The notes: a model not told the origin generated them from the sequence alone. 64,000 nucleotides of DNA from Thermodesulfobacteriota bacterium (GCA_965232155.1 OZ246948.1:341698-405697); one strand, 5' to 3'. Counted from the stretch's first letter, positions 7,384 through 60,798 are shown. A program made the numbers and translations.

Positions 7384-9681
7384 CTATGAACCGCGTCGGT
7401 AGGTTAGCTGAACACCGAAGGTTCTGCCTTTGGAGAGCGGTGCGAATGAACCTCCCGCAGCCGCGCTTAAGCTGAGAAATCCCAGGGTTTCGGGAAGATC
7501 GGTATAGCTTCCGTGTTTGACCTTGTCAAGAAGGTTCTTTCCGTAAAATCCGATTGAAAAATTACCGCTCATTGGAGTGATATCAATTCCGGCGTCAACA
7601 ATCTTCTGCTCCGGAGTATATCCTCTATTGTCATCTGTAAGGTATGTTTTGCTGCGATGTGAGTAGCTTACCCTTGAAGTCATCTTCGCCCATTTCAAAA
7701 GTCCAGTGTTATGGGTCGCACCGACACTCCAGGTCCAATTGGCGGCCCGGGGAAGCTTTAAAGCCTTATCTTTTCCGTCAACGATGCCATCTAGGTTGAG
7801 GTCGTCCTTTACTTTGGTGTACTCGGGGTCTACGTATCCGACGGAACCCAGAAGAAAAAGCTGATCGGTAATGCCTATCAGTCCGTCAATTTCAAAGCCG
7901 AAGGCTTCTACGTCTGCAGTGTTGCGAACCACCTGTGCTATGCCTCCCTCGAAGGAAGGAAGAGTTATTACCCTTTGCACATCATCGATCATGTTATAGA
8001 AAATCGCGCCGTTCACGATGCCAATGCTCGTTGACATCTTTAATCCCGCCTCGAAGGTATCGATCTTTTCTTCGTCGTACGGTCCCGGGAGTTCCACATC
8101 TGAGGTATAGGTATTTCGCACATTATAACCTCCAGAGCGGAATCCCCTGGTCCAGTGCCCGTAAATGTTCGCTTCAAAACCCTCTCCGCCACCCAAATAA
8201 TAGGCAGCGCCGAGCTTGGGCGACCAGCTCTTCCAAGTCTCCTCGTCGCTGAAATCAAACTGGCATTCGGGTCCCTTAGCAACGTTGCATGGCATTGTCG
8301 TTCCTATCAGGCCGCTTGTGTTGGAAATGCCGGAAGCGGTCTCAACTTCTCTCTTTTCGTAGCTGTAACGGGTGCCCGCGGTAAGCGTTATCCGATCCGT
8401 AAGATCGTAATCAAGAGACAAAAACACACCTAGCGTATCGACATGGTAATCCCCTCCCAAGTCTTGAGTAAGGTGTATTCCGGCGGGCAAAACCCCATCC
8501 GCAACAAGTCTGTCGAGATGATCTCCAATCAGATAACGACGGTCATGATAATTTATCTCGCTTGTAAAGTAATAAAAGCCGGTCGTCACGTGGAGCTTTT
8601 CGAAGAATCTGCCCGTGTAGCGCAGTTCGTCGCTCCACTGGCGGTAGGGGGTCCATCCTCGTATATTGAGAATGTTTTGCGGCGAAGAATCGACATCAAC
8701 CAAAGCGGTCCCGTCTGCGTCGTAAAAACCGAATACGTTGGTTATTGTGCCATCTCCGAAATCCACATCCCAGTCAATCTGAGCGGAGAAAAAATGATTT
8801 CTATGCTCCCTGAAGCCTTCCTCGTCGATGCTGAAATCATGACTATCGATATCAAAGTCGCGCCAGTTCTGTCCAGCGGTGCCATCGCTGGACGAATTTT
8901 CGTACCGGTAGCGCAGAACAAGGCTTAAGTCATCCGTCGGATTCCACATAATCACCGGCCGTATCATCCGTGTGTCGTTCTCTCCGAAAGTTTTGCCCGT
9001 GTGGAGATTCTTAAACCAGCCGTTATCCTGATTTGTGTACGCGCTTAGCTGCACGCTGACTGTCTCGCTAATCGGGCCTGCGATTGTGCCCATGTAATAG
9101 CTGTTAAGGCTCTCCCCTCCTCCTTCAAACGAAGTGCGGACCGATACCTCAAGAGCATCCCCCGGTTTCTTAGTATTGACCAGTATGGCGCCCCCTGTAA
9201 CATTCCGCCCGAAAAGCGTTCCCTGTGGTCCCCTCAGCACCTCTATGCTTTCAATATCGAAGGTATCAAACAAAACGGTGGTTATCTGCCCCAGATACAC
9301 GCCGTCGACAAATACTCCCACGGTCGGATCAACAGACGTTATGGAGCTGGTTATTCCTACACCGCGGATGGAAAAGTTGGCCACTGCCAGTCCCGAGATG
9401 GCATCGTCAAGCGCCACATTGGGCATGTGTACCGCAAGACTTTCAAGATCATCTACTTTCAAAGCTTCAATCTTTTCCGAACTGAAATGGGTGATAGACA
9501 GAGGAACGTTCTGAAGCAGCTCTTCTCGTTTTCGGGCGGTAACCGTGATTTTTTTGAGAACTACGCCGCTTACCCCGAACACACCCTGTCCAACTGCGTC
9601 ATCGTCCTGTGCAACAGCGTCACCACTGCCGAGCGACGCTAGGAGCACACATACGAGAAACGCACATAAAAACCACTTCAT
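7384..9681 (-). CDS. TonB-dependent outer membrane receptor
   Basis: Signal peptide MKWFLCAFLVCVLLASLGSG. Plug-domain motifs VTARKREELLQNVPLSIT and IEVLRGPQGTLFGRNVTGGAI. Long beta-barrel body. The ORF track's longer N-terminus was trimmed to the signal-peptide Met. Confidence 0.8.
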   Translation of the reverse strand: MKWFLCAFLVCVLLASLGSGDAVAQDDDAVGQGVFGVSGVVLKKITVTARKREELLQNVPLSITHFSSEKIEALKVDDLESLAVHMPNVALDDAISGLAVANFSIRGVGITSSITSVDPTVGVFVDGVYLGQITTVLFDTFDIESIEVLRGPQGTLFGRNVTGGAILVNTKKPGDALEVSVRTSFEGGGESLNSYYMGTIAGPISETVSVQLSAYTNQDNGWFKNLHTGKTFGENDTRMIRPVIMWNPTDDLSLVLRYRYENSSSDGTAGQNWRDFDIDSHDFSIDEEGFREHRNHFFSAQIDWDVDFGDGTITNVFGFYDADGTALVDVDSSPQNILNIRGWTPYRQWSDELRYTGRFFEKLHVTTGFYYFTSEINYHDRRYLIGDHLDRLVADGVLPAGIHLTQDLGGDYHVDTLGVFLSLDYDLTDRITLTAGTRYSYEKREVETASGISNTSGLIGTTMPCNVAKGPECQFDFSDEETWKSWSPKLGAAYYLGGGEGFEANIYGHWTRGFRSGGYNVRNTYTSDVELPGPYDEEKIDTFEAGLKMSTSIGIVNGAIFYNMIDDVQRVITLPSFEGGIAQVVRNTADVEAFGFEIDGLIGITDQLFLLGSVGYVDPEYTKVKDDLNLDGIVDGKDKALKLPRAANWTWSVGATHNTGLLKWAKMTSRVSYSHRSKTYLTDDNRGYTPEQKIVDAGIDITPMSGNFSIGFYGKNLLDKVKHGSYTDLPETLGFLSLSAAAGGSFAPLSKGRTFGVQLTYRRGS

Positions 9682-9861
9682 TCCAGATTTGAATTCTCTT
9701 TTAATTATTTCGATACCCCTTTTTTGTGCACAGGAATTATAACATAACCCTGCGCGAAAAACCCAAGTCATCAGATTTACTGCATAACGGGACTTACAGC
9801 ACGGCATGAAACGCCCGGTCACGACGGACGGACAGGCGCGCCTCACCGCGCAGGCAGCGAA

Positions 9862-13567: not shown

Positions 13568-15499
13568 TTACAAATGTTTTTCCCGGTATACGTAATTTCG
13601 TGCAAACAACGAAAAGGCAAGCAGAAGCAGGATAGCTTGGGGAACTGCGGTCTCATAAGAAGGATATATCCCGAGAGTATCCATGTAAGGAATGAAATCC
13701 GCCGTAGTAGAGGAAATAATTCCCGCCTCCTGGAGTTCAAGTATTCCCTTGCCGAGCAGTATGAAGCAGAGAAGGTAGAGGAAAACGCTCGTGAAGGAAA
13801 AGAAGTACTTAAGAGGAATCCTGAGGGTAAACCTGTACATAAGAAAAGCTATAACGAACACGACCGCCACCCCCGCAACAAGTCCATAGATCACGTGTGG
13901 CGTGGATGAAGCGGTCTGGTAGAAAAGCGCCTGGTAAAAAAGCATTGTCTCGAAAGCTTCCCTGTAGACGGCAAGAAACGAAACGAAAGCAAGAGTAAGA
14001 CCGCTTCTTCGGGTAAGCGCGCCCTGGGTCTTCGAGCGGACGTATTCCTTCCATTTTTTCACGTCTGCCTTTGAGATAAGCCAGTAACTCACGTAAAAAA
14101 GAATCACCGCTGCCAAAAGGGAAGTCACTCCTTCCACAATCTCCCTCCTGGCCCCCGAGAGATCTATTATGGTTCTTGCCGCGACCCATGTCGCCAGTCC
14201 CGCAAAAATGGCAAGCACCCACCCGTAGTGAACGTACCTGATCATCCCGCGGTTACCTGAATGCGCCAAGGCGGCGATAATGGCCGCGATTATAAGCAGA
14301 GCCTCAAGCGCCTCCCTCAGTATTATGGCAAAGGAATTGACAAAACTGAGGTATTTGCCGAGAGATGAACCGCCTTGCAGGATGCGTTCAGACTCGCGAA
14401 GGTCCTCCTCTATGCTGGCTTTTAGATCATGAAGCTCGGAGGAGTCCCGGTCGGACATCACCAATGATCTGAAAAATCCCATTTTTTTCTCGACTCTGAG
14501 AACAAGCGATCTTTTTTTAGAAACAAGCGCGGGCTCGATTCTCTGGAAGCCTCCTAGGTAACCGTCAAGGGCTTCCCTGAATGCCTCGTCTTTTCTGCCG
14601 GCTTCATGAAGATTGATCGCTTCTGCAAGCTTCCTCATTGTATGGTCTATAGCTTCGGATGCGCCTCCAGCAATTCCATCCCGAAGATAAGCGGTTCTGA
14701 GGTAAAAGAGAACATTCTGGTCGCTGCCCCCGGCTCCGGCATTAAGAAGAATCTCCGCATTGCTGGCCAAGGCGAGATTCTCAAGCTTCTTTACATCTCG
14801 GGGAATATTCTCCGTGGAAAAACCCGAAGTGCCACCCGGGGGAATGTCCGGATACCCCAGAGAGAGAACGTAAAATGCAATGTCCCATTTCTGTTCTTCG
14901 TCAAGCACCTCTTCAAACGAGGCCATTGCAGTACCTTCGATTCCAAAAGTTGTAGTATTGTAAACTTTAAAGGGCGAGAGCCCCTGATTTATATCGGAGG
15001 CCGTGAAATCCGTGGGAGGAGGGTTGAGAGTCTTGGAAAAAGCCTCGTCCGGCTTTCCAGAAAGCCCGTGACAGGAGGAACAGTTCTCCGCGTAAAGCGC
15101 TTTTCCACTTTCATAATCAGGAATCTTCGTCGGGTAAGGCTTGATGTCATAGGCAGAAATGATCCGTCCCTTAAGTTCATTTGCAAGGCTTTCCACCTCG
15201 GAGACTGATCCTTTGGATACTATAATTGAGTGCAGAAGAGCAAATTTTTCAGAAAAATCGGCGGTTTCTGGCTTTTTCTCAGGAATCTTTTCCCACAGTT
15301 CCACAGATGCGGAAGAGAAATCAAGCATCTCCTGATATTCAAATTCGCTTATGATCTTCCCTTCTTCTACGGCATTTGCGTAATCTCCTCCTATGTAGTC
15401 CACAAGAGAGAGGATTCTGTCTATCTCCGCGGCATAAGAGGGCCTTGGAAAAAGAAAAAATATGAGAACTGACAAATAGAAGAAACTTTTTTTAAGCAT
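13568..15499 (-). CDS. Cytochrome c - FTR1 family iron permease fusion protein
   Basis: Signal peptide. Heme-binding CSSCH with a distal Met (GTAMAS) in a mono-heme cytochrome c domain. C-terminal polytopic domain with the two FTR1 RExxE motifs (REALEAL and YREAFET). Confidence 0.8.
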   Translation of the reverse strand: MLKKSFFYLSVLIFFLFPRPSYAAEIDRILSLVDYIGGDYANAVEEGKIISEFEYQEMLDFSSASVELWEKIPEKKPETADFSEKFALLHSIIVSKGSVSEVESLANELKGRIISAYDIKPYPTKIPDYESGKALYAENCSSCHGLSGKPDEAFSKTLNPPPTDFTASDINQGLSPFKVYNTTTFGIEGTAMASFEEVLDEEQKWDIAFYVLSLGYPDIPPGGTSGFSTENIPRDVKKLENLALASNAEILLNAGAGGSDQNVLFYLRTAYLRDGIAGGASEAIDHTMRKLAEAINLHEAGRKDEAFREALDGYLGGFQRIEPALVSKKRSLVLRVEKKMGFFRSLVMSDRDSSELHDLKASIEEDLRESERILQGGSSLGKYLSFVNSFAIILREALEALLIIAAIIAALAHSGNRGMIRYVHYGWVLAIFAGLATWVAARTIIDLSGARREIVEGVTSLLAAVILFYVSYWLISKADVKKWKEYVRSKTQGALTRRSGLTLAFVSFLAVYREAFETMLFYQALFYQTASSTPHVIYGLVAGVAVVFVIAFLMYRFTLRIPLKYFFSFTSVFLYLLCFILLGKGILELQEAGIISSTTADFIPYMDTLGIYPSYETAVPQAILLLLAFSLFARNYVYREKHL

Positions 15500-15679
15500 A
15501 GCCCGCGGATATATTCCCGTATTGGGGGTCAGGGAAGGTACTTTTTACCATTCTAGACCTTTATTGTCAATAATTCTCATCATCGTCGTGATTTTCGCCT
15601 TTAGCAGATGGTTCCGGGAAGAAAATCGGATGAGTAATTCAGCTGATTGTCCCACTTGCAAATATTTTTAAAAGAATTC

Positions 15680-15722
15680 TTGACATCATCACTCCAGAAT
15701 GTTATTAATCCATATCATGGAT
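15680..15722 (+). promoter_or_regulatory. Putative sigma70 promoter (TTGACA-17nt-TATTAA) for the porin gene, with an overlapping operator-like palindrome ATCCAT-ATC-ATGGAT
   Basis: ttgaca at 15680-15685. tattaa at 15703-15708. Perfect 6-bp inverted repeat with a 3-bp spacer at 15708-15722, in the divergent region between the FTR1 gene and the porin gene. Confidence 0.35.
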
Positions 15723-15789
15723 ATTAAATATCCACAATATCTAGTAATTATGCAACCCTAACAGGTCGCAAGAAGGAGGATGTCAACAG

Positions 15790-17103
15790 ATGTTTAATTA
15801 TACAAAACAGTGGAGAATTCTTTTTGTCTTTTTCCTGATTTTTTCACTCGCAGGCACGCAGATTTCTCTAGCGGGTCCAGCTTCTGAGGAAAAGATAAAA
15901 AAGCTTGAGGAGCAGATAAAGATTCTGGCGGATGAGATAGAAGCCATAAAGTCCGCTTCGGTAACGGAGCCTCCGGTCTATGAGACGGAATTCGGGGTGG
16001 CACCCGCGGCATCAAAAGTCTACAGGGTTGACCAGGGAGTATCGTTCGGGGGCTACGGTGAACTGCTTATAGCCAACGTAAAAGAGGACTCGCACGACAT
16101 AGTGGATACCCTGAGACTTGTTCTCTATAACGGCTACAAGTACAACGACCACATAGTTTTTAACTCGGAAATAGAATTCGAGCACGGTACGACGGGAAGC
16201 AATAAGGATGGAAAAGAGGGATCGGCATCGGTTGAGTTTGCGCTGATTGATTTTCTTATAAGCGATGAGTTCAACCTGAGAGCCGGACTTCTTCTGACTC
16301 CTTTCGGAATCGTAAACGAGATTCACGAGCCGACGACGTTTTACGGAGTGGGTAGACCCGAGGTGGAAAGGCGGATAATTCCGAGTACATGGAGAGAGTC
16401 CGGAGCCGGTGCACACGGAACGTTTGATCTGGGCAGCGCCGGGGACCTCTCTTACAGGGCCTACGCAATGTCGAGCGCCGATGCTCGGGGATTCAAGGCA
16501 TCGGACAACAGGAGTCTTCGGATCAAGGGAAACAGGGCAAGATTCGACGACATAGCTTTTGTCGGAAGACTTGAGTACGACCCGATTCCAGGGATTAAAA
16601 TCGGAGGGTCCGTTTTTTACGGCAACACGGGACAGGATGAAGAAGTTAACGGCCAGACGATAGACGGCCTTTTCCAAATGTACGAAGTTGACGCGCAGTT
16701 TCAGTATGCAGGGTTAGACCTGAGAGCTCTATCAGTCTGGACCAGGTTGGATGACGCCGCACTTATAAACCAACTCAATGAGTATGAAGGCAACAAATCC
16801 GTCGGGGAAGAACAGTCCGGCTGGTATGTTCTCGGAGCATACAACATCTTCTCTGCGCTTAACTCCGGAAGCAGATACCTGGAGTATCTGGCGCCTTTTT
16901 TCCGGTATGAACAATTTGATACGCAGGAAAAGGTTCCCGCCGGGTTTGAAAGAGACCCCGCCAATGACAGGACCCAGTACACTATCGGGGTAAATTACAA
17001 GCCGATTCCAAACGTGGTCATAAAAGCTGAGTATCAGAATCTCGACAATGCCGCAGATGAGGCAAAGGATCAGTTCAATTTCGGGCTTGGATATGTGTTT
17101 TAG
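15790..17103 (+). CDS. Outer membrane porin (beta-barrel) with an N-terminal coiled-coil segment
   Basis: Signal peptide. Coiled-coil KIKKLEEQIKILADEIEAIK. Alternating amphipathic beta strands. C-terminal FNFGLGYVF ends in an aromatic residue. Paralogous to the porin at 55723-56994. Confidence 0.55.
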   Translation: MFNYTKQWRILFVFFLIFSLAGTQISLAGPASEEKIKKLEEQIKILADEIEAIKSASVTEPPVYETEFGVAPAASKVYRVDQGVSFGGYGELLIANVKEDSHDIVDTLRLVLYNGYKYNDHIVFNSEIEFEHGTTGSNKDGKEGSASVEFALIDFLISDEFNLRAGLLLTPFGIVNEIHEPTTFYGVGRPEVERRIIPSTWRESGAGAHGTFDLGSAGDLSYRAYAMSSADARGFKASDNRSLRIKGNRARFDDIAFVGRLEYDPIPGIKIGGSVFYGNTGQDEEVNGQTIDGLFQMYEVDAQFQYAGLDLRALSVWTRLDDAALINQLNEYEGNKSVGEEQSGWYVLGAYNIFSALNSGSRYLEYLAPFFRYEQFDTQEKVPAGFERDPANDRTQYTIGVNYKPIPNVVIKAEYQNLDNAADEAKDQFNFGLGYVF

Positions 17104-17219
17104 GATACAGGACTTAAATCCGCGATAAACGGGCGCGGGTTTATGCTTCTTTTTTTTCTCTCTCTTTTTCTCTCTTAAAAAAGGGCAATATTCAGATAGA
17201 ATGTTGCCCTTCCTTAATT

Positions 17220-17771
17220 ATGATTGCAAGAAGCCTCATCTTAATAACGCTTGTATTTTTTCTGCATGGCGCCGGAGATGCCTCAGCCAAGGTCTTTCTT
17301 ACCAAGGGCAAGGCGCTTGAGCTCGTTTTCCCTGAAGCAGAAGAAATAGAAAAAAGACACGTTTTCCTCACCAAATCCCAAGCCGAGAGAGTACGCACAA
17401 TGGCAAAGGTCGAGGTGGATTCAAGACTTTATACCTTCTACATAGCAAAATCCGGCGGGAAGGAGACAGGCTACGGGGTTATCGACACCCACACTCTTCG
17501 GACCCTGACCGAAACCGTAATGTTCGTAATAAATCCCGACGGGACGCTCCGCCACGCTGAAACTCTCGCATTTTTCGAACCCACGGATTACATGCCGAGC
17601 GGAAAATGGATAAACTTGTTTCTGGAAAAAACCAGGATGGACAGAATGAAGGTAGGAAGAGGAGTTCCCAACATTACCGGAGCCACGATAAGTGCTGTAT
17701 CTTTTTCGCAAGCTACGAGAAGAGTTCTCTCCGTCTACAGAGTCACCTTCGGCATTCCGGCTGATTCCTGA
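17220..17771 (+). CDS. Secreted FMN-binding domain protein carrying an ApbE flavinylation motif
   Basis: Signal peptide MIARSLILITLVFFLHGAGDASA. C-terminal FMN_bind-type sequence GVPNITGATISAVSFSQATRRV containing the (S/T)GAT(S/T) covalent-flavinylation consensus. Confidence 0.7.
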   Translation: MIARSLILITLVFFLHGAGDASAKVFLTKGKALELVFPEAEEIEKRHVFLTKSQAERVRTMAKVEVDSRLYTFYIAKSGGKETGYGVIDTHTLRTLTETVMFVINPDGTLRHAETLAFFEPTDYMPSGKWINLFLEKTRMDRMKVGRGVPNITGATISAVSFSQATRRVLSVYRVTFGIPADS

Positions 17772-17791
17772 TCATCCATTTAGGAGAAAAA

Positions 17792-18283
17792 ATGAAATTC
17801 TTCATTTCAACGGACATAAGAAAAAACGACCTGTTAAAACTTGTCGTTCTGCTCACAACGATTTTCTTCCTCTTTTTGTGGCTGACCAACCTTCTGCTTT
17901 TCCTGAAGGTGGGATTCAGTTATGAAAGCGTTGTTGAGTACTATAGGGGCTCTGAGGAAAGTTTCAGGCCTCCGAGGAGCTATCTTGGGCTGCTTGAAGA
18001 AGCTCATTTCCACTTTTTCTCAATGGCCGTTTTACTGGTAACGCTCAATCATCTCTTTCTTTTTACCAACAGAAGCTCTGCCGAAAAACTTCTCGTCATA
18101 ATAGCATCTTACGGCTCCGCCTTCCTCGATATAGCCGGCGGCTGGCTGGTAAGGTACGTAAGCGCCGAGTTTGCCTATGTTAAGATCGGCTCTTTTGTCG
18201 TCCTTCAGATAGCTCTTCTTTACCTGATCATTTTCGTAACGTTTTATCTCTACAGGAAAAAACCCGAGTATCCGAAGTCGTAG
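17792..18283 (+). CDS. Small integral membrane protein, function unknown
   Basis: 163 aa with about four predicted TM helices. Located 20 nt downstream of the FMN-binding gene. Confidence 0.4.
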   Translation: MKFFISTDIRKNDLLKLVVLLTTIFFLFLWLTNLLLFLKVGFSYESVVEYYRGSEESFRPPRSYLGLLEEAHFHFFSMAVLLVTLNHLFLFTNRSSAEKLLVIIASYGSAFLDIAGGWLVRYVSAEFAYVKIGSFVVLQIALLYLIIFVTFYLYRKKPEYPKS

Positions 18284-18308
18284 CGGCGACTTCCCCTCAC
18301 CCTTAACC

Positions 18309-19286
18309 CTATGGGCATGCGTAAGACCCGAAGCAAGACCTTTTCTCTCCGTTTTTCCCAACGAGCAGAAACCCCAGGGATTTATCCTTCCGGGAAAACA
18401 TCTTTGCACCACGCGGACCCAGAACCGAAACGGCAGTCGAGAAAACATCGGCTTCCGTAGCGGTTTTGGAAACGGCTACAACGGAAGTCATATCCTCGGC
18501 AGGCCAACCCGTCCTGGGGTCAATTATATGAGAGTACTTCTTCCCGGCGTGCTCAAAGTAGCGCTCGTAATCTCCCGAAGTCGCCACACCCTTATTCACA
18601 AGATCAAGCTTCGAGATGATTTCACTTCCGCTCCCGGGTTTTCTTACTCCCACATCCCAGAATTTTTTGCCTGCGGGAGGATTCATCGCGTATATGTTTC
18701 CCCCGAAATTCACAAGTCCTCTCGTGATTCCGCTCTCCTTGGCGATTCTCACCATCTCGTCAACCGCGTAGCCTTTTCCTATAGCTCCGAAGTCGAGCCT
18801 GACGCAGTCGCCATCAAGAAAAACCTGGGATTTAGCTTCGTCTATCTTTATTTTGCGAAAACCCGTACACCCAAGCGCATCGCGGATCCGTGAGGGGGCG
18901 GGTAACCGCCCCGCCCTGGTCTCAGCCCGCCAGAGTTCGAAAAGACTGCCGATAGTTATGTCAAAAGCCCCCTCAGTAAGCTCTGAGTACTTAATCGAGG
19001 TCCGCACAAGACGCAGAAATTCCCCGGGAACGGAAACGGGGCCGACTCCCGCATTTCTGTTCACCTCAGCAAGAACGCTGTCATCCCTGTAGTTACTGAA
19101 AAGCCGGTCTATTTCCTTGGTTCTCTCAACGCAGGCATCAACAACCCGGTGGAAGAGCTCCTCGCTCGGGGAATAAAACTTGAGTTCCATCGTTGAACCC
19201 ATCGAGTAAAAGGATCTCTCGTAAAGATTCTCCGTACCGTGGGAACAGGAACAAAAAAGCAGAACTAGAAGCCCAAGAAGGCGCAT
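18309..19286 (-). CDS. apbE: FAD:protein FMN transferase (ApbE family) lipoprotein
   Basis: Lipobox LLFCSC. ApbE motifs GAIGKGYAVD, VNFGGNIYAMN and GVATSGDYERYFEHAGKKYSHIIDPRTGWP. Confidence 0.85.
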   Translation of the reverse strand: MRLLGLLVLLFCSCSHGTENLYERSFYSMGSTMELKFYSPSEELFHRVVDACVERTKEIDRLFSNYRDDSVLAEVNRNAGVGPVSVPGEFLRLVRTSIKYSELTEGAFDITIGSLFELWRAETRAGRLPAPSRIRDALGCTGFRKIKIDEAKSQVFLDGDCVRLDFGAIGKGYAVDEMVRIAKESGITRGLVNFGGNIYAMNPPAGKKFWDVGVRKPGSGSEIISKLDLVNKGVATSGDYERYFEHAGKKYSHIIDPRTGWPAEDMTSVVAVSKTATEADVFSTAVSVLGPRGAKMFSRKDKSLGFLLVGKNGEKRSCFGSYACP

Positions 19287-19314: not shown

Positions 19315-19396
19315 TGCGAGAGGAGGGAGTCGAACCCTCACACCCTAAGGTACTAGATCCTAAATCTAGCGCGTCTGCCTGTTCCGCCACTCTCGC
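19315..19396 (-). tRNA. tRNA-Leu (anticodon TAG), class II with long variable arm
   Basis: Manually folded. Acceptor stem gcgagag/ctctcgc. Anticodon loop tttagga. 13-nt variable arm. T-loop ttcgact. Confidence 0.75.
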
Positions 19397-19467: not shown

Positions 19468-19541
19468 TGGGCTGCGAGGGATTCGAACCCACGACCGACT
19501 GATTAAGAGTCAGCTGCTCTACCAGACTGAGCTAGCAGCCC
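19468..19541 (-). tRNA. tRNA-Lys (anticodon CTT)
   Basis: Acceptor stem gggctgc/gcagccc. D-arm gctcagtctggtagagc. Anticodon loop ctcttaa. T-loop ttcgaat, with one U-U mismatch in the T-stem. Confidence 0.65.
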
Positions 19542-30994: not shown

Positions 30995-31849
30995 GTGAGA
31001 ATCAAAAATCTGTTCGCGGCGATCCTGCTTGCCCTCGTCGCCGCACCAGATGTGTCTCTGGCGGAACCGCCCTGCCCAAAAAGCATAATATCGCTCACCC
31101 TCGCCTCAGACGAGATCCTGATCGACATAGTCAGCGATAGAAAAAAAATAGCCGCGCTCACCTATTTCTCGACCGACCCGCTGATTTCAAACGTGGCGGA
31201 AAAAGTGCGGGGAATTCCGCAGGTCCGAGCGAACCCCGAGCAGATAATCGCAAAATCCCCGGATCTCGTGATAGTCGCGGGCCACACAAACCCGAACATA
31301 CGCGCGCACCTTGAGGCGGCGGGAATAAAGGTGCTGCTGCTCCACGAAATCGTCTCGCTTGAGAAAATAAAAAAGAATATAGAACTGGTCGGAGAGGCTG
31401 TCTGCGAGGAAACCACGGCAAAAAGTCTCGTGGAAAAAATGGAAAGCCAGATCGCGGACGCCAAGGCGAAGATTCCGCCTCACGCGAGGGCCCCGACGGT
31501 TCTTTTTTACGGGGCCCCCGGATTCACGGTCGGCAAAGGCTCTACCATAAACGATATAATAGAAAGTTCCGGGGGCATTAATCTCCCGGCCCGCCTGGGG
31601 CTAAGCGGATACAGCAACATATCTACCGAGTACGTAATCCAGAATAACCCTGACCTGGTGCTTACAAGTAGTTATAATCCCTCTCACCCGGATTTTGTCG
31701 GACAGATGTTCAAAAATTCCGCATTCAGAGACAAAAAGATCATAGTCGTCGCGGGAAAACATCTAGACGCCGCATCCCATTACGCGGCACGGGCCGTAGT
31801 TGATCTGGTGAACCTTATATTCAGAGCAGAAACCAATGCCGACCGGTAA
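30995..31849 (+). CDS. ABC transporter periplasmic substrate-binding protein (class III, BtuF/FecB-like; iron-siderophore/cobalamin type)
   Basis: Signal peptide. 284 aa. Periplasmic-binding-protein fold motifs PDLVIVAG and NPDLVLTS. Confidence 0.7.
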   Translation: MRIKNLFAAILLALVAAPDVSLAEPPCPKSIISLTLASDEILIDIVSDRKKIAALTYFSTDPLISNVAEKVRGIPQVRANPEQIIAKSPDLVIVAGHTNPNIRAHLEAAGIKVLLLHEIVSLEKIKKNIELVGEAVCEETTAKSLVEKMESQIADAKAKIPPHARAPTVLFYGAPGFTVGKGSTINDIIESSGGINLPARLGLSGYSNISTEYVIQNNPDLVLTSSYNPSHPDFVGQMFKNSAFRDKKIIVVAGKHLDAASHYAARAVVDLVNLIFRAETNADR

Positions 31850-32873
31850 GAAAACACTTTCCGTATACGCAGTACTCGCCTCGCTGCTTTTACTGACCGT
31901 CGTCGTGTGCGTATCGCTCGGGGCGGTGAGCGTTCCGTTTGACGAGGTAATCCGCATAATAGCCGGCAAGCTGCTCTGGGTTGATGCCGGAGCGGAAATC
32001 GGAAAATCGCAGGAACTTATCGTCTGGGACGTAAGGCTCCCCAGAGTTCTTCTCGCCGCCATAATAGGAGGGGGGCTCTCAATTGTGGGAGTTGTAATGC
32101 AGGCGATGTTCAGAAACCCCCTGGCCGAACCCGGAATACTGGGCTGGTCAAGCGGAGGAGCTTTTTTCGCCGTTCTGGTGATCTACACCGGTATTCATCA
32201 GCAGTGGTTTCTCCTGCTCCCTCTCGCTGCGTTCGCGGGCACCCTCCTCACTGCATACGCGGTCTACGGGATATCGCGCTACAGGGGTTTTGTCGAGAAC
32301 ACGACGCTTCTTCTCTGCGGGGTGGCGCTCGGAACACTTTTCGTTTCGTTAACGACTTTCGTGCTTTCGGTATCAAACGCGTGGTCAATGAAGGAAATGC
32401 TCTTCTGGATAATGGGCGGAATCGATTCGCGCACCTGGACGCATTTCGCAATGGCTGCGGTGCCAGTGCTTGCCGCCTCGGCAATGCTGCTTTTCTACGC
32501 TAAGAACCTAAACGCTAGGCTCCTCGGCTACGAGACAGCGAAAACCGTCGGCATCGACATAGAGAAAACGACCAAGCACCTCATAGTCCTGAGTTCCCTA
32601 ATAGTCGGAGCAAGCGTTGCGGTAAGCGGCATCGTGGGGTTCGTCGGACTTATAATTCCACACTCGGTAAGACTGCTGATCGGGGTGGACCATCGCCGGC
32701 TCCTGCCCGCGAGCTTTATCGCCGGAGCCATATTTCTGCCCGCAGCAGACCTTATAGCAAGGACCGCCATGAGCCCCCAGGAACTTCGCCTCGGAATAAT
32801 CACTTCCTTTATCGGAGTTCCTTTCTTCGTGTTTCTGCTGAGGCGGAGTTTCAGCGGGAGGGGAATCGCGTAG
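31836..32873 (+). CDS. ABC transporter permease, FecCD/BtuC family
   Basis: 345 aa with about 9 TM helices. Conserved FecCD motifs (RLPR, and LAGxxxGxxV-like GVALGTLF). Confidence 0.8.
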   Translation: MPTGKKTLSVYAVLASLLLLTVVVCVSLGAVSVPFDEVIRIIAGKLLWVDAGAEIGKSQELIVWDVRLPRVLLAAIIGGGLSIVGVVMQAMFRNPLAEPGILGWSSGGAFFAVLVIYTGIHQQWFLLLPLAAFAGTLLTAYAVYGISRYRGFVENTTLLLCGVALGTLFVSLTTFVLSVSNAWSMKEMLFWIMGGIDSRTWTHFAMAAVPVLAASAMLLFYAKNLNARLLGYETAKTVGIDIEKTTKHLIVLSSLIVGASVAVSGIVGFVGLIIPHSVRLLIGVDHRRLLPASFIAGAIFLPAADLIARTAMSPQELRLGIITSFIGVPFFVFLLRRSFSGRGIA

Positions 32874-32874
32874 A

Positions 32875-33642
32875 ATGCGGAAAGAATCAGTAAAAATATC
32901 GGGGCTAAGTTACGGCGTAAACGGAAAAACCATAGTTGACGACGTAAGCTTCGAGATTAAAAGAAACGAGTTCCTGGGAATAGTCGGTCCAAACGGCGCG
33001 GGGAAATCCACGCTTCTCAGGCTTCTTGCCCGGATAATTGACCCAACCGCGGGTCGCATCCTGCTTGACGGAGAAGATATCTCTGAATACGAAGCAAAAG
33101 AGCTTTACAGAAAAATATCGTTTCTCCCGCAAACCTCGTATTTTGATTTTCCGCTGAGCGTGCTCGAGGTAGTGCTTACGGGAAGGTATCCGTACCTGGG
33201 AATTTTCGAGAGCGAGAGCGAAGAGGACATAAGGCGCGCCGAGGACTGTCTTTCGCTTGTGGACATGGAAGGGTTTTCCCGGAGAAAAGTAACGACACTT
33301 TCCGGAGGGGAGCAGCAGAGAGTGTCGGTCGCAAGGGTTCTCGCGCAGGAAACCGCTATTGTTTTCCTTGACGAACCCTCCTCTCACCTTGATATACACC
33401 ACAAGTTTGCCCTCATGGAACTGCTCGTGTCGCTGGCGCGAGAAGAAAAAGGGATCGTGGCCGTTCTCCACGACCTTGACCTTGCAAGCAGGTTCTGCGA
33501 CAGAATCCTTGTGCTTGAAAACGGCCGGGTTTCCGCCTTGGGAGAACCGTCGCACGTGCTTTCCGAAAAGCTTCTCTCTTCGGTATTCAAGGTAAGGGGT
33601 TCCTGGGACCCCGGAAGGGGAAATCTCCTTGTTTTCCGGTGA
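32875..33642 (+). CDS. ABC transporter ATP-binding protein (FecE/BtuD-like)
   Basis: Walker A GPNGAGKST. ABC signature LSGGEQQR. Walker B IVFLDEP. Confidence 0.85.
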   Translation: MRKESVKISGLSYGVNGKTIVDDVSFEIKRNEFLGIVGPNGAGKSTLLRLLARIIDPTAGRILLDGEDISEYEAKELYRKISFLPQTSYFDFPLSVLEVVLTGRYPYLGIFESESEEDIRRAEDCLSLVDMEGFSRRKVTTLSGGEQQRVSVARVLAQETAIVFLDEPSSHLDIHHKFALMELLVSLAREEKGIVAVLHDLDLASRFCDRILVLENGRVSALGEPSHVLSEKLLSSVFKVRGSWDPGRGNLLVFR

Positions 33643-55722: not shown

Positions 55723-56994
55723 CTAGAAGTAGGTTTGAATCTGCGCTCTTACTATCGACTCATCAGACTCCGCACCAGCGAGATCCTCTTCCCTCTGGAA
55801 CGTGTAGTCAAGCTGTACCTTCCACTTGTGATTGCCGCTGAAGTAGTAGTTAAGTCCCTGCGTAAACGCCCATACATTGTCAAGGTCATTTCCTCCTACT
55901 ACATTCGCCCCATCATCAAACACTACCATCGCGTACCTTGAGGCAAGCTCTACTCTTTTCGGAAGAAGGAAAAAACCTCCCTGAACCCTGAAACCCTGAT
56001 CATAGGCTGTGTCTACTCCGCCCTCATCAGAATTGGCCCACCTTCCGATATACTCACCCGTAAGATTGAACCTCGGGTCCCTGTAGTTTACGTCCGCCGT
56101 GAAGGAAGTTACCGTACCGCTCTCAAGCTCTCTCTCCCCGGATGGAATCCCTATATTGCCATCACTCCCATCCTCTACATCTATGCCCGCAACAGCGGCT
56201 CCAACCATGAGCGTGGGCCTCTTGGCGAAATTCTCTTTTACGCTCTTGGCTTTCCCACCGATAACGGATGCCTGCACTCTCCCGGCCCAGAGCATACCTG
56301 TGTCACCCTTGTCGTTTTTCTGGTTCGCGCCCTCTCCCTGGAAAACACCTAAGTCATACCGGACCATTCCGCCGCCGAGAAGACCGTAAACACCACCACC
56401 GATATCCCTGTCGTACTCAAAATAGTCGGTTATTATCGAACGGTCTACAACCTGAAGGGCGGATGAGGAGTTAAGCACCTCCCTGTTGAACGGAACCTTG
56501 TACTGACCCACCGTGGGAACAAAAGCCTTGTTCTTGGCAAATGAAAGCTTCATATCTTTGAGTTCACCGGTTCTTCCGAAATCGTACTGAATTTTGTATT
56601 TCATCCAGGGAGCGAAAGCGTTACCGTCCCACGTTATCCTTAGCCTTCTTACCCTGAAACCGAGACCTTCATCATCTTCTCCGTCAGGGTTTATGTAGTT
56701 GGCGAGGAACTGACCGCGAAGCCTCATTCTCATCTTGTAGTTCTTGTCCGCAGTCTGGAAAGTAAGACCAGTGCCTTTTTTAGTTTCGACCTTTATTTTG
56801 TTGTGCCAAGCCTTAGAATCTTTCGCCGTGGCCTCGTATGCCTTGATGTTCATCTGCTGCTCAAGCTTTTCTATCTGCTGCTTGAGTTCCTCGATCTGTT
56901 CCCTGATGCTCTCGTCCTCGCCGGCCTGGGCGGGAAGTGATATAAAGGGAAGCAGAGTGAAAAAAGAAATAGCTAAAACTGCTAAAATTCTCAT
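55723..56994 (-). CDS. Outer membrane porin (phosphate-selective porin O/P-like), with N-terminal coiled coil
   Basis: Signal peptide. Coiled-coil IREQIEELKQQIEKLEQQM. Beta-barrel body ending in an aromatic residue (IQTYF). Divergent from phoB and adjacent to the pst operon. Paralogous to the porin at 15790. Confidence 0.6.
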   Translation of the reverse strand: MRILAVLAISFFTLLPFISLPAQAGEDESIREQIEELKQQIEKLEQQMNIKAYEATAKDSKAWHNKIKVETKKGTGLTFQTADKNYKMRMRLRGQFLANYINPDGEDDEGLGFRVRRLRITWDGNAFAPWMKYKIQYDFGRTGELKDMKLSFAKNKAFVPTVGQYKVPFNREVLNSSSALQVVDRSIITDYFEYDRDIGGGVYGLLGGGMVRYDLGVFQGEGANQKNDKGDTGMLWAGRVQASVIGGKAKSVKENFAKRPTLMVGAAVAGIDVEDGSDGNIGIPSGERELESGTVTSFTADVNYRDPRFNLTGEYIGRWANSDEGGVDTAYDQGFRVQGGFFLLPKRVELASRYAMVVFDDGANVVGGNDLDNVWAFTQGLNYYFSGNHKWKVQLDYTFQREEDLAGAESDESIVRAQIQTYF

Positions 56995-57160
56995 CTCATG
57001 TCTTCCTTAATGTGTTTGTTGGTCTGCTTTAAACAACTCTGGCCTAATGATATGCGTGAATGATTAATTCAAAATAAACGAACTGTTAGTTCTATGTTAA
57101 GAACCTTCAGGGTGTAATTGATGTACACTTCTGTATTCTGTAAATTAAGAAAGAACACAG

Positions 57161-57859
57161 ATGAGAAAGCTCATAGCTGTAGTAGATGATGAAAAAGACA
57201 TACTCAACCTGATAACCCACCATCTAAAGCGCGAAGGGTACCAGGTAAAGTCTTTTCAAAGTGGAAAGGACTTTCTGCTCTACATAAATTCCGTTCCGCC
57301 CGATCTGGTGCTGCTTGACATCATGTTGCCCGGCATGGACGGCCTTGAACTGTGTAAAATCCTTAAAAGCAAGCCCTCGACGGAATCCATACCCATAATC
57401 ATGATCACCGCGAAATCCACCGAGGCCGACATAGTAGTGGGTCTCGAACTCGGTGCCGATGACTACATAGTGAAGCCCTTCCGGACCAGGGAACTCGTCG
57501 CCAGAGTGAAAAGCATCTTGAGAAGATACGCGATGAAGGACTCGTGGGACGGCGCGCTTCGGATCGGCCCCCTCAAAATAGACTCGGCAAGCTACGAGGT
57601 TTCGGTCAACTCGCGGAAAATTGATCTTACCACCACCGAGTTCAGAATACTCGAGACCCTGGGGGAGGTGGAGGGAAAGGTTTTCACCCGCGACCAGCTG
57701 CTCAAAAGAAAAACCCTCTGGGGAGACGAAAGAGTGGTTTTTGACAGAACTATAGACGTTCACATAAAAAACCTGAGAGAAAAGCTCGGTTCCGCCGGCA
57801 AGATGATAAAGACCGTGAGAGGAATCGGTTACAAGCTAGAAGAGATCCAACCGGTTTGA
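57161..57859 (+). CDS. phoB: OmpR/PhoB family response regulator
   Basis: Receiver domain with the phospho-Asp in LVLLDIMLPGMDG. Winged-helix C-terminal domain. Confidence 0.85.
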   Translation: MRKLIAVVDDEKDILNLITHHLKREGYQVKSFQSGKDFLLYINSVPPDLVLLDIMLPGMDGLELCKILKSKPSTESIPIIMITAKSTEADIVVGLELGADDYIVKPFRTRELVARVKSILRRYAMKDSWDGALRIGPLKIDSASYEVSVNSRKIDLTTTEFRILETLGEVEGKVFTRDQLLKRKTLWGDERVVFDRTIDVHIKNLREKLGSAGKMIKTVRGIGYKLEEIQPV

Positions 57860-59223
57860 AAATATTCAGAAAACATTTCCTTTATCTGCTCTGCATCGCC
57901 GCCACCGCGGCTCTGCTCGCCATGCTGCTTCCACCCAAGCATGGAGTTCTCGGTTACTTAGTGTACGTGGCCGCGTTTACGGCATTCGGATTAGTGCTGT
58001 CGCGGATAATCGAAAGGGACATCCTGAAAGACTTCTCAAGGATATCAAAGGCGCTTGAACTCCTGCCGGAAAAGCAGAAGAAAGCCCGCAAGACGGGCCG
58101 CAAGGTAGGCGACTTCGACACCGGAGTCTCGATCTCCATAAGCGAGCTCTCGGAGAGGATTTCCCTCCAGATGCAGTCAACCGAAAGGGAGGGAAACCAG
58201 CTCAAGAGCATAATCGAGTCGATGAGGGAAGGAGTCATAGTAATATCTAGGGAAGAGGAACTGATACTTGTAAATGACGCCGCCAAGGAGATGTTTGGAA
58301 TTGAGGACGCAGCCTTAGGACGCCCCTACATGGAAACTGTGAGAAATCCTGATCTCCAGAGGCTTATCTCAAGGATGCAGAAAAAGAAGAAGTCGGCCAC
58401 CCAGGAAATCTCGGTGCTTTACCCAGCGGAAAGATCATACCTTGTGAGTGTCCGTGTAAGTCCCCGTTACAGGGAAATCGTGGTGGTGATTTTCGATATC
58501 ACAGAATTTAAGAAGCTTGAGCGAATGAAGGCTGATTTCGTGGCGAACGTATCCCACGAGTTCCGAACCCCGCTTACGTCCATAAAAGGATACATCGAAA
58601 CGCTCCTTGATAAGAACTACGACACCGACGAAGAGAAAAAGAGATTCCTCGAGATAATAGAGGAAAACACCGACAGGCTCATAGCCATAGCTTCAGATCT
58701 GCTCGTGTTGTCTGAGCTTGAAAGCGGAGGAACCGATCCCCCAGACTCCGGGAAAGGGTACGAGGAGATCAACATCGAGGAAACGATCATTCGCTCTGTG
58801 GGCTCACTTGACTCCCTATTCTCGAGAAAAGGGGTCAATCTCTCCCTTGAAATCGAAGACGGCCTGCCCCCCTACAGGGCAAACAGGTTCCTCATGGAGC
58901 GCATGCTTATTAACCTTGTTGAGAACTCGGCTAAGTACACCCCGGAAAACGGCTCTGTTGCTGTCCGCGCCTCGGCCCCAAACAGCACCTTGCGCATAGA
59001 GGTTGAAGATAACGGGATTGGAATCCCCCAAGAGCACCACCAGAGGATATTTGAGAGATTCTACAGGGTGGACAAGAACCGTTCAAGGGAGATAGGCGGA
59101 ACGGGGCTTGGACTCAGCATAGTGAAGCACATAGTCATACAGTACGGGGGAACCATAGAAGTGAGAAGCGCGGAGGGTGAGGGAAGCATGTTCACCGTTG
59201 AGCTTCCGCGACCTGAGAAGTAA
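57856..59223 (+). CDS. phoR: Phosphate regulon sensor histidine kinase (PhoR-like) with PAS domain
   Basis: H-box SHEFRTPLTSI. N, G1 and G2 boxes (DNGIGIP, GGTGLGLSIV). Overlaps the phoB stop. Confidence 0.8.
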   Translation: MKIFRKHFLYLLCIAATAALLAMLLPPKHGVLGYLVYVAAFTAFGLVLSRIIERDILKDFSRISKALELLPEKQKKARKTGRKVGDFDTGVSISISELSERISLQMQSTEREGNQLKSIIESMREGVIVISREEELILVNDAAKEMFGIEDAALGRPYMETVRNPDLQRLISRMQKKKKSATQEISVLYPAERSYLVSVRVSPRYREIVVVIFDITEFKKLERMKADFVANVSHEFRTPLTSIKGYIETLLDKNYDTDEEKKRFLEIIEENTDRLIAIASDLLVLSELESGGTDPPDSGKGYEEINIEETIIRSVGSLDSLFSRKGVNLSLEIEDGLPPYRANRFLMERMLINLVENSAKYTPENGSVAVRASAPNSTLRIEVEDNGIGIPQEHHQRIFERFYRVDKNRSREIGGTGLGLSIVKHIVIQYGGTIEVRSAEGEGSMFTVELPRPEK

Positions 59224-59232
59224 ACGCAGCGG

Positions 59233-59898
59233 TCAGTTCATCTCCGAAGTGTGCTGATGCTTAAGCATCTCTCCGGTGGCTATGTAGTAGGCGTTCTCGG
59301 CTATGTTGGTCGCAAGATCCGCCACTCTTTCAAGATGCCTCGCGACGTAAATGTAGCGAAGTGCCCGGTCAAGCGTTGAGGGGTCCGATATCACAAAGGT
59401 TATAAGCTCCCTTACTATCTGGGGTTCGTAGTTATCGACTTCGTCGTCTTTGCGACAGACCTCAACGGCAAGTTGCTCATCACTTCTTATAAACGCGTCC
59501 AAGGCCTCGCGGAGCATCTCCAGCGCCTTGTCAGCCATCTTGGGAATGTCAATAAGCGGCTTTATAGGGGGATAATTCGCCGTGAAAAGAGCCATTCTCG
59601 AGATACTCGAGGCATGGTCCCCTATCCTCTCAAGATCGTTGTTGACCTTCATTATCATGGTGACGGTCCGCAGATCTGTGGCCTCCGGCTGGTAAAGAGC
59701 CAGTATCTTGATACAGAGGTTGTCTATCTCGATCTCCATCGAGTTTACCTGGTCATCCGTGCCGATAACCTCCTGAGCAAGAATCATGTTGCCTTCGCGA
59801 AGGGCCTTTATGCTCTTGGCAATCATGGTCTCGACAATGGATGCCATCTCAAGCAGTTTCTTGTTAAGAAGCACGAGGTCCCCTTGGTATTTTATCAT
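59233..59898 (-). CDS. phoU: Phosphate signalling complex protein PhoU
   Basis: Two PhoU repeats with the conserved D...ER.GD motifs (NDLERIGDHA and RHLERVADLA). Confidence 0.9.
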   Translation of the reverse strand: MIKYQGDLVLLNKKLLEMASIVETMIAKSIKALREGNMILAQEVIGTDDQVNSMEIEIDNLCIKILALYQPEATDLRTVTMIMKVNNDLERIGDHASSISRMALFTANYPPIKPLIDIPKMADKALEMLREALDAFIRSDEQLAVEVCRKDDEVDNYEPQIVRELITFVISDPSTLDRALRYIYVARHLERVADLATNIAENAYYIATGEMLKHQHTSEMN

Positions 59899-59922
59899 CC
59901 GTAATTGCTCCTTCGGAGATGT

Positions 59923-60798
59923 CTAGCCGAACTTGCCCGAGACATAGTCTTCAGTGTGTTTTTTGGCAGGGTTAAGGAATATCTTCTCCGTGGTGTCAAA
60001 CTCCACTATGTCTCCTATGTACATGAAGGCCGTGTAATCCGAGACCCGGGAGGCCTGCTGCATATTGTGGGTCACGATCACTATGGTGAACTTGCTTTTA
60101 AGTTCCGTAACAAGATCCTCTATCTTGGCCGTAGCTATGGGATCAAGCGCGGAGCAGGGCTCATCCATCAAAAGCACGTCCGGTTCAACCGCTATTGCCC
60201 TCGCGATGCAGAGTCTTTGCTGCTGACCTCCCGAAAGGCTCATGGCGCTGTCATTAAGCCTGTCGTTTACCTCGTCCCAGAGGGCGGAGCGTTTGAGGTT
60301 TTTCTCCACGATATCGTCAAGAACAGATTTCTTCTTGATCCCCGCTATCCTGGCCCCGTAGGCGACGTTCTCGTAGATTGACTTGGGAAACGGATTTGAT
60401 TTCTGAAATACCATCCCGACCCTTTTTCTAAGATCGGTGATGTCGACATCGGAATCGAATATGCTTTTACCGTTAATCGATATGTCCCCTTCGGTCCTGC
60501 AGTCATCAATGAGGTCGTTTAAGCGGTTAAAGCAGCGAAGCAACGTGGATTTGCCACAGCCAGAAGGGCCTATAAACGCCGTGACCTGTTTTCTCGGGAT
60601 ATTCATGTTGATGTCCCGAAGGGCCTGCTTTGTGCCGTAAAAAAGACTCAAGCTTTCGACTTCGACCAAGGGGTTGGGAACAGGCCTTGCCTTCTCCGGT
60701 TTCTTGGCCTTGGGAGCCGGGGAAACACCGTTTGTCTTCGGGGTTCTGAACTCCTGTTTTTCCATCGGTTTTTCAGACAGCATTAAATCTTCCTCCAC
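59923..60798 (-). CDS. pstB: Phosphate ABC transporter ATP-binding protein
   Basis: Walker [10 protein letters not shown]. Signature LSGGQQQRL. Walker B LLMDEP. Start possibly at a downstream Met. Confidence 0.9.

Follow-up and report, generated by a model that had tools for sequence, protein, structure and literature searches.

The stretch of DNA described here is a 64,000-nucleotide window (GCA_965232155.1 OZ246948.1:341698-405697, with positions counted from its first nucleotide) from a genome of Candidatus Dadabacteria that NCBI files under Thermodesulfobacteriota. Positions 13568 to 19286 carry five genes, namely a cytochrome c-FTR1 fusion permease and, divergent from it, a porin-like outer-membrane protein, a secreted protein with a putative flavin mononucleotide (FMN)-binding domain (FMN_bind) and a small inner-membrane protein with four transmembrane helices (the 4-TM protein), met in convergent orientation by an ApbE-type transferase. 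An earlier note on this DNA had interpreted them as one iron-uptake island, and all five open reading frames that it listed are present where it placed them, with the motifs that it ascribed to them. The locus was compared with a set of approximately 125 related loci, designated here by L numbers; a metagenome scan seeded with the 4-TM protein returned 80 loci at 41-96% identity of that protein, and 14 lineages were defined at 75% identity of the same protein. These comparisons slightly favour a reading in which the four genes from the porin to apbE form a flavinylation module that acts as a periplasmic iron reductase and cooperates with the permease in assimilatory iron uptake, to which somewhat better than an even chance is given.

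The permease gene (13568..15499, minus strand) encodes a 643-aa protein comprising a signal or anchor segment, a helical domain, a mono-haem class I cytochrome c, a second helical domain and an FTR1 permease with two REXXE motifs. The Pfam matches lie well above their cut-offs for both FTR1 (PF03239, 2e-29, 103 bits against 25.3) and Cytochrom_C (1.7e-10, 42.5 bits against 21.3), and in an alignment with 23 homologues at 45% identity or more the haem-binding C140-S-S-C143-H144, Met192 and the two permease motifs R395EALE399 and R513EAFE517 are invariant, which bears out the claim of a fusion with a CSSCH motif, a Met ligand and RExxE motifs. Likewise invariant in this alignment is an N-terminal acidic motif, D34-Y-x-G-G-D-Y...E54-Y-x-E57, the first helical domain carrying it as DYIGGDY..EY.EM. 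With a CXXCH motif, a distal Met and a cytochrome c fold, the cytochrome domain has the sequence attributes of the class I c-type and is predicted to attach haem; Foldseek and hidden Markov model (HMM) searches match it to cytochrome c6, CcoP and the monohaem subunit of alternative complex III (ACIII). An AlphaFold2 (AF2) model, with a predicted template modelling score (pTM) of 0.38 and an unreliable domain arrangement, contains approximately seven long helices in the C-terminal half, and from it Foldseek recovered the cytochrome c domain alone. The strongly matching PDB chain 6h5l_B was rejected as an architectural relative, being a dihaem cytochrome in which each haem domain matches the single domain here. 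The NCBIfam EfeU equivalog NF041756 scores 120.5 bits and does not reach its cut-off of 255, and the permease is classed by sequence as a member of the FTR1/EfeU family and not as an EfeU orthologue. Homologues are named 'cytochrome c/FTR1 family iron permease' by NCBI, and no characterised cytochrome c-FTR1 fusion was found in the literature. A conserved cytoplasmic C-terminal extension of approximately 90 aa (HIKGHIIEW..CEDIDLEAE..) is present in a group of homologues at approximately 47% identity (P0469-P0510) and absent from the window protein.

The FMN_bind gene (17220..17771, plus strand) encodes a 183-aa secreted protein, identified by a cleavable signal peptide that ends in ASA before K, by a TGAT motif and by its family profile. 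PF04205 (FMN_bind) is present in many homologues at approximately 50% identity, and among solved structures the family profile finds RnfG (chain 9eri_G, 1e-5), with ITGATIT aligning to the ITGSTIT of RnfG. The motif P-N-[IVM]-[TS]-G-A-T-I, which in the window reads P-N-I-T-G-A-T-I-S, is invariant in the family, in agreement with the earlier description of a signal-peptide protein bearing a TGAT flavinylation motif, and Thr156 is the predicted site of flavinylation by ApbE. Further invariant residues, D89, H91, R94, E98 and LAFFEP, are specific to the family. The transferase itself is encoded at 18309..19286 on the minus strand, convergent with the 4-TM gene, as a 325-aa lipoprotein, as had been claimed for it, of the ApbE flavin adenine dinucleotide (FAD):protein FMN transferase family (PF02424, 1.2e-79, 268 bits), in which the lipobox cysteine, Cys14, is conserved across homologues.

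The remaining inner-membrane component is the 163-aa 4-TM protein (17792..18283, plus strand), which is assigned to the Pfam family PF27139 (Aq_1264_TM) through its homologues, all 120 of those listed (up to 94% identical) having a precomputed match to that family. Against the local Pfam library the window protein gave no credible family at E<=10, EetA and EetB included, and no mention of PF27139 or Aq_1264 was found in the literature for this recent, uncharacterised family, of which an exhaustive HMMER search recovered 420 clusters at 50% identity. Four helices are seen in the AF2 model, with a predicted local distance difference test (pLDDT) of 82, and the positive-inside rule predicts an N-in/C-in topology, in agreement with the architecture of natural fusions. 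The motif E69/E70-x-H72-x-H74 lies at the periplasmic end of the second transmembrane helix (TM2), with H87 deeper in TM2, and among distant members Y51, G53, H72, H74 and K99 are near-invariant and most have H87. In 17 representatives the domain is duplicated in tandem; in almost all of these the first repeat retains H72 and has lost H74 and H87, whereas H74 and H87 are kept by the second repeat, from which H72 has nearly always been lost. The complementary pattern of loss implies that two copies of the single-domain protein pair up and share a site, in which haem b or a metal ion would be bound by H72 from one protomer together with H74, and also H87, from the other. In some organisms the 4-TM domain is fused to ApbE, with an extra hydrophobic segment preceding the ApbE domain, and this extra helix would place the ApbE domain outside the membrane, on the periplasmic side.

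The same residues could instead be read as an ion path, E-x-H-x-H and H87 lining an Fe2+ channel or binding protein that carries no electrons, with the flavoprotein being supplied with electrons from another source. Conserved Glu, His and Asp residues, distributed along TM2 and TM3 and at the mouth on the periplasmic side, would suit such a function, as would the many loci that have no other iron permease and the one representative in which the 4-TM domain is fused to a cytoplasmic DtxR-type metal-binding domain, which senses metal, and a FeoA domain. However, a partnership in redox or flavin chemistry is suggested by the ApbE fusion and by the almost constant pairing with FMN_bind, one type of operon (L079-type, below) contains both a 4-TM protein and an FTR1 permease, and the asymmetric division of His residues in the tandem forms fits a shared ligand site better than a pore; a channel is regarded as improbable.

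The first gene of the conserved operon (15790..17103, plus strand) encodes a 437-aa porin-like outer-membrane beta-barrel protein with a signal peptide, an N-terminal coiled coil and an aromatic C-terminal end (...GYVF). These features are those of an outer-membrane protein, as the earlier designation as a porin would have it, but the class of porin is not established, as the match to the BBP2/OmpL-like porin family (PF07642; 8.6e-5, 22.4 bits) falls below the gathering score of 26.2; homologues are likewise weak BBP2 matches, and no solved structural relative of the protein was found.

Across the 80 loci, the 4-TM gene is immediately preceded by the FMN_bind gene in 77, the remaining three ending at a contig edge, and a porin gene lies upstream of this pair in 68, representing 13 of the 14 lineages, with most of the rest also truncated by contig ends. 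An apbE gene within 8 kb of the 4-TM gene was found in 31 loci from nine of the 14 lineages, in upstream, downstream or convergent positions, and two loci (L101 and L121) have FMN_bind, 4-TM and apbE genes without a porin. In other Dadabacteria-like genomes the porin-FMN_bind-4TM trio stands far from any FTR1 or apbE gene. By gene neighbourhood, the conserved core is therefore classed as FMN_bind and Aq_1264_TM, with a dedicated porin preceding it in almost all lineages and ApbE as a frequent neighbour or fusion partner, and the proposal that the five genes form one functional unit was not upheld, the conserved operon being porin-FMN_bind-Aq_1264_TM. The proximity of ApbE, the 4TM-ApbE fusions and the alignment of TGAT with the ITGST of RnfG all argue for a flavin partnership of the module. 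Membership of an adjacent Rnf, Nqr or NosR complex, which would have given the FMN_bind and ApbE proteins another explanation, was not borne out, as Pfam and other domain scans found no Rnf, Nqr or NosR gene in the whole 64-kb window.

The link to iron comes from the genes that accompany the module. FTR1 permeases adjoin it in five of the 14 lineages, in five different gene orders: divergent as in the window, which holds also in Dadabacteria whose cytochrome c-FTR1 is just 50% identical; apbE-porin-fmn-4TM-f7-FTR1 as a single co-directional cluster (L079-type), in which FTR1 is a simple permease of 258 aa that has the two REXXE motifs but no cytochrome domain; fur-cytFTR1-apbE-porin-fmn-4TM (L081); cytFTR1...porin-fmn-4TM-apbE (L111); and a convergent FTR1 gene (L102). 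As FTR1 would be expected, by rough estimate, in approximately 1% of 16-kb windows, this recurrence is far above chance. A Fur-family gene (Pfam 3.4e-37) on the same strand heads the cluster in five loci of two lineages, from a few hundred bases to approximately 1.2 kb upstream of apbE (or, in L081, of the cytochrome c-FTR1 gene), and an imelysin gene (3.5e-84), which follows the module in one lineage, comes after the 4-TM gene in L092, while in L112 it is found approximately 0.7 kb downstream of that gene. Because of these FTR1, Fur and imelysin neighbours, together with the DtxR-type fusion, a role of the module in iron acquisition is well supported by the comparative data, and the earlier description of an iron-related, flavinylation-dependent extracytoplasmic system is strengthened accordingly.

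Several other genes were encountered at these loci. The f7 protein is a conserved, secreted, all-helical protein of 115-137 aa, found in one AT-rich lineage, with invariants that include D-F-x-P, Y-W..H and G-I; its gene lies between the 4-TM and FTR1 genes or next to apbE, at approximately 8492-8842 in L079, L082, L085, L093, L097, L108, L110, L117 and L124, and beside apbE in L075-L077 and L080. The 116-aa periplasmic L079-type protein was considered as a relative of the helical domains of the cytochrome c-FTR1 permease and rejected, as neither BLASTP nor hhalign found any similarity, and it has no Pfam match. By eye from the sequence, a multicopper-oxidase-like protein and a small cytochrome c (CVHCH) adjoin the module in L084 (2172-4199 and 5200-5733), and a dihaem cytochrome c peroxidase-like protein adjoins it in L114 (8631-9947). 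The genes found between the porin and cytochrome c-FTR1 genes in three Dadabacteria genomes (L028 4482-7418, L004 6185-7720 and L024 4603-7518; a 978-aa leucine-rich-repeat protein, a Cache-domain protein and a UvrD-like helicase) are taken as unrelated insertions and not as parts of the system.

A number of observations weigh against a reductase module working with the fused permease. The cytochrome c-FTR1 genes of Acidobacteriota and of a further Thermodesulfobacteriota lineage stand alone, there are many modules without an FTR1 gene close by, and four Dadabacteria retain cytochrome c-FTR1 and have lost porin-FMN_bind-4TM-ApbE as a block. In two of these four Dadabacteria, small remnants are left, short pieces of ApbE and porin beside the intact cytochrome c-FTR1 gene (L018 7794-7883 and L020 7538-7887), which indicates a recent block loss of the four-gene module. 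The flanking Tig-ClpP-ClpX genes are also syntenic in Dadabacteria, so that synteny within this clade proves little by itself, and Fur-family regulators can sense Zn, Mn or peroxide as well as iron. As regards flavinylation, the Pfam assignments anticipated for the locus held for FTR1 and Cytochrom_C, both above their gathering scores, and for ApbE, but not for the window's FMN_bind protein, which matches PF04205 at E=0.017 and 16.2 bits against a gathering score of 22. In addition, the family has an invariant Pro in place of the canonical Asp of D-x-x-[S/T]-G-A-[S/T], the flavinylation motif of secreted proteins, in which substitution of Asp by Ala is reported to have only a minor effect (ApbE review, PMC12052999).

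Carried to its end, this line of argument would make the module and the permease two unrelated neighbouring systems, the module serving periplasmic redox chemistry that does not involve iron and the adjacency in Dadabacteria being inherited synteny. The synteny of the whole region including Tig-ClpP-ClpX, the unrelated genes between porin and cytochrome c-FTR1 in some genomes and the occurrence of the module and of cytochrome c-FTR1 each alone would all be expected under such a history, but it would leave the adjacency of FTR1 in five lineages and in different orders (against the rough expectation of ~1% per 16-kb window) and the Fur, imelysin and DtxR links to coincidence, and it is considered very improbable. 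What the distribution does indicate is that the module and cytochrome c-FTR1 are separable: the wiring of FMN_bind and ApbE to cytochrome c-FTR1 that the earlier note envisaged recurs as adjacency, but the coupling is facultative and each part occurs alone, and, on the gene neighbourhoods, reduced iron from the module is probably passed to whatever importer the cell has.

From the gene content, motifs, conserved operon, gene fusions and iron-gene neighbourhoods observed, the reading of a periplasmic iron reductase that cooperates with the permease would take the following form. The outer-membrane channel would let small iron species in, and the secreted FMN-binding protein would receive a covalent FMN at Thr156 from the lipoprotein ApbE. 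Aq_1264_TM would form a dimer, would bind a His-ligated cofactor (most likely haem b) where the two protomers meet on the periplasmic side, and would connect the flavoprotein with the membrane electron pool. The reduced flavoprotein would then reduce ferric complexes in the periplasm, and the released iron would be imported by the cytochrome c-FTR1 permease, the fused haem of which would take the place of a cupredoxin, P19 or EfeO-type redox partner. Repressor control of expression would probably be mediated by two conserved palindromes, described below.

The direction of electron flow in this scheme may also be questioned, and with it the haem-assisted import that the earlier note proposed, since a class I haem with His/Met ligation would more plausibly oxidise Fe2+, as a ferroxidase partner does, than act as a reductant. 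In a reversed arrangement, haem c would oxidise Fe2+ at the mouth of the permease and Fe3+ would be translocated, with the flavoprotein and the 4-TM dimer passing the electron on to quinone or, as has been proposed for FtrD, returning it across the membrane. Such a flow would accord with the haem being of the His/Met class I type, with the pairing of the permease with an oxidising partner in the FTR1 systems Fet3-Ftr1, EfeUOB and FtrABCD, and with the 4-TM protein as a plausible transmembrane electron carrier. However, most modules have no FTR1 or cytochrome nearby and must function without an oxidase-permease, the L079-type FTR1 has no cytochrome domain, and covalent FMN of the NqrC/RnfG type is presumably of low potential and would be an odd acceptor for a high-potential haem; a reversal of the flow is considered unlikely. 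With a reductase module retained and the haem suited to oxidation of Fe2+ at the permease, the island would resemble the yeast pathway of a reductase followed by an oxidase-permease. A broader proposal, put forward as tentative and rather doubtful, is that porin-FMN_bind-Aq_1264_TM-ApbE represents a widespread, undescribed system for reductive iron uptake in diderm bacteria, that its membrane subunit is a new class of dimeric transmembrane electron carrier with His-ligated haem b, and that with cytochrome c-FTR1 it forms a bacterial counterpart of yeast Fre/Fet3-Ftr1, in which the flavin reductase would free Fe2+ from ferric ligands and the haem 'ferroxidase'-permease would re-oxidise and import it, possibly recycling the same electron.

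Two kinds of described system are precedents for a reductase module of this sort, the P19/FTR1 clusters and certain membrane cytochromes b. FMN_bind genes are contained in P19/FTR1 clusters, of which 260, mostly Gram-positive and with P19, have been reported (Meheust et al. 2021, eLife, PMC8238504). These share with the window an FMN_bind protein beside FTR1 that is flavinylated by an ApbE-type enzyme (by prediction in the window) and a proposed redox chemistry for iron uptake, whereas the window locus is without P19 and a thioredoxin-like gene and has a porin, a fused cytochrome c and Aq_1264_TM, none of which is met in that study's account of the clusters (PMC8238504). FtrABCD, EfeUOB, FetMP and Fet3-Ftr1 similarly combine an FTR1 permease having two REXXE motifs with an extracytoplasmic redox-active partner, but here a mono-haem cytochrome c, covalently fused to the permease, takes the place of that partner, and Pfam scans of the neighbouring genes found no cupredoxin, P19, EfeO/EfeB or polyferredoxin gene at the locus. 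RnfG and NqrC have the FMN_bind fold that is predicted for the window protein and a flavinylated Thr motif that aligns with it, although the latter is a stand-alone secreted protein with invariant residues of its own and no other Rnf or Nqr subunit in the window. Flavinylation-associated membrane cytochromes b are known from the PepSY-like, MsrQ-like, DUF4405 and FezC families, the haem sites of FezC being formed by homodimerisation (Huang et al. 2024 preprint, PMC10979944). Like the 4-TM protein they are small, helical inner-membrane proteins with conserved His residues, encoded beside apbE and FMN-binding genes and commonly in an iron context (PMC10979944), but the 4-TM protein matches none of their Pfam families at E<=10, and has three conserved His residues in four helices as compared with their four His residues in two bis-His haem sites.

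The Listeria monocytogenes extracellular electron transfer locus (FmnB, PplA, EetA, EetB, Ndh2 and DmkA), to which the earlier note had likened the island, also brings together an ApbE-family transferase, a secreted flavinylated FMN_bind protein (the flavinylation being predicted here) and a small membrane protein. The resemblance is an analogy at most, since the 4-TM protein has no detectable homology to EetA or EetB and neither Ndh2 nor DmkA occurs among the neighbours; moreover, the window organism is diderm, the locus has a porin and the context is assimilatory and not respiratory. A related possibility is a respiratory conduit for extracellular electron transfer, serving dissimilatory metal reduction as a flavin counterpart of porin-cytochrome systems, given that a porin, a periplasmic redox protein and an inner-membrane protein are combined and that FeGenie reported porin-cytochrome-like operons in Dadabacteria (PMC7005843). 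Such a conduit is scarcely credible here, as the neighbours are assimilatory (FTR1, Fur and imelysin), there are no multihaem cytochromes, Ndh2 or DmkA among the neighbours scanned, and in a general comparison with the 26-strand MtrB the 437-aa barrel looks too small to sheathe a flavoprotein of ~18 kDa. Within flavinylation-dependent extracytosolic electron transfer and iron uptake, the locus is set apart from both the P19/FTR1 clusters and the membrane cytochromes b by the dedicated porin, the new membrane family with three key His residues in place of four, the fused cytochrome c that replaces P19, cupredoxin or EfeO, and the lack of similarity to EetA/B.

The regulatory sequences were compared across 20 Dadabacteria loci, in which two blocks of the 290-bp divergent region are near-invariant and the rest drifts. 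The first (15542..15574, minus strand) is a candidate promoter of cytochrome c-FTR1, near-invariant between varying flanks, with a -35 element TTGACA (reverse complement of 15565-15570) and an extended -10 element TGgTAAAAA (reverse complement of 15542-15550); the near-palindrome TTTATTGtCAATAAT (15560-15574) covers the -35 element and is a candidate operator. The second block (15680..15733, plus strand) contains the putative porin promoter, TTGACA (15680-15685) and, after a 17-nt spacer, the -10 element TATTAA (15703-15708), preceded by TGt to give TGtTATTAA (15700-15708), followed 3' by the palindrome GGATATTAAATATCC (GGATAT-N3-ATATCC, 15719-15733), the arms of which are kept in nearly all of the 20 loci with a variable spacer. 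A canonical sigma70 promoter overlapped by an operator-like palindrome had been proposed here, which agrees with the perfect -35 element and the conserved palindrome; the -10 element, which is extended by TG, matches in four of six positions, and the palindrome lies 3' of it. The promoter and operator roles of both blocks are predictions from sequence and conservation; each palindrome occurs as a single copy in the window, such that no regulon can be defined, and neither resembles a classical Fur box.

Two hairpins (17116..17211, plus strand) in the spacer between the porin and FMN_bind genes (17104-17219) are kept in the 13 Dadabacteria loci compared for this region. The first (17116-17142) resembles a terminator, with a T/CT-rich run 3' of it, and the second (17181-17211) has a 13-bp stem and ends 8 nt 5' of the FMN_bind ATG, which has no Shine-Dalgarno sequence. 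The hairpins could possibly reduce expression of FMN_bind and the 4-TM protein relative to the porin. A promoter-like TTAAAA-16-TAGAAT overlaps the second hairpin. A Rfam scan of the locus found no known cis-regulatory RNA, a rimP-leader match below threshold being probably due to chance.

The wider neighbourhood comprises Tig, ClpP, ClpX, porin, FMN_bind, 4-TM, ApbE, tRNA and MscS genes, apbE and the MscS-like gene being separated by two tRNA genes (19315-19396 and 19468-19541, minus strand; Rfam 56.9 and 68.2 bits). Elsewhere in the window there are further uptake genes of the iron type, for a TonB-dependent receptor of the siderophore/haem type (7384-9846, minus strand), a FecCD-type ATP-binding cassette (ABC) importer (Peripla_BP_2, FecCD and ABC_tran; 30995-33642, plus strand), and also a phosphate-regulon cluster (55723-60798) with Porin_O_P, a PhoB/PhoR-like two-component pair, PhoU and a PstB-like ATPase.

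How Fe2+ is obtained from ferric complexes in oxic water without siderophore machinery is poorly resolved for most bacteria, as is the source or sink of electrons for FTR1-type permeases. The locus names testable parts for both questions: an outer-membrane channel, a predicted flavinylated periplasmic protein, a new membrane family, and FTR1 with or without a fused haem. If the proposed system is correct, the catalogued systems of flavinylation-based extracytosolic electron transfer would gain a membrane component, and Pfam PF27139 would be assigned a function. The system would then also account for the way in which iron is acquired by Dadabacteria, common as symbionts of sponges and as heterotrophs in the sea, and by several further uncultured lineages.

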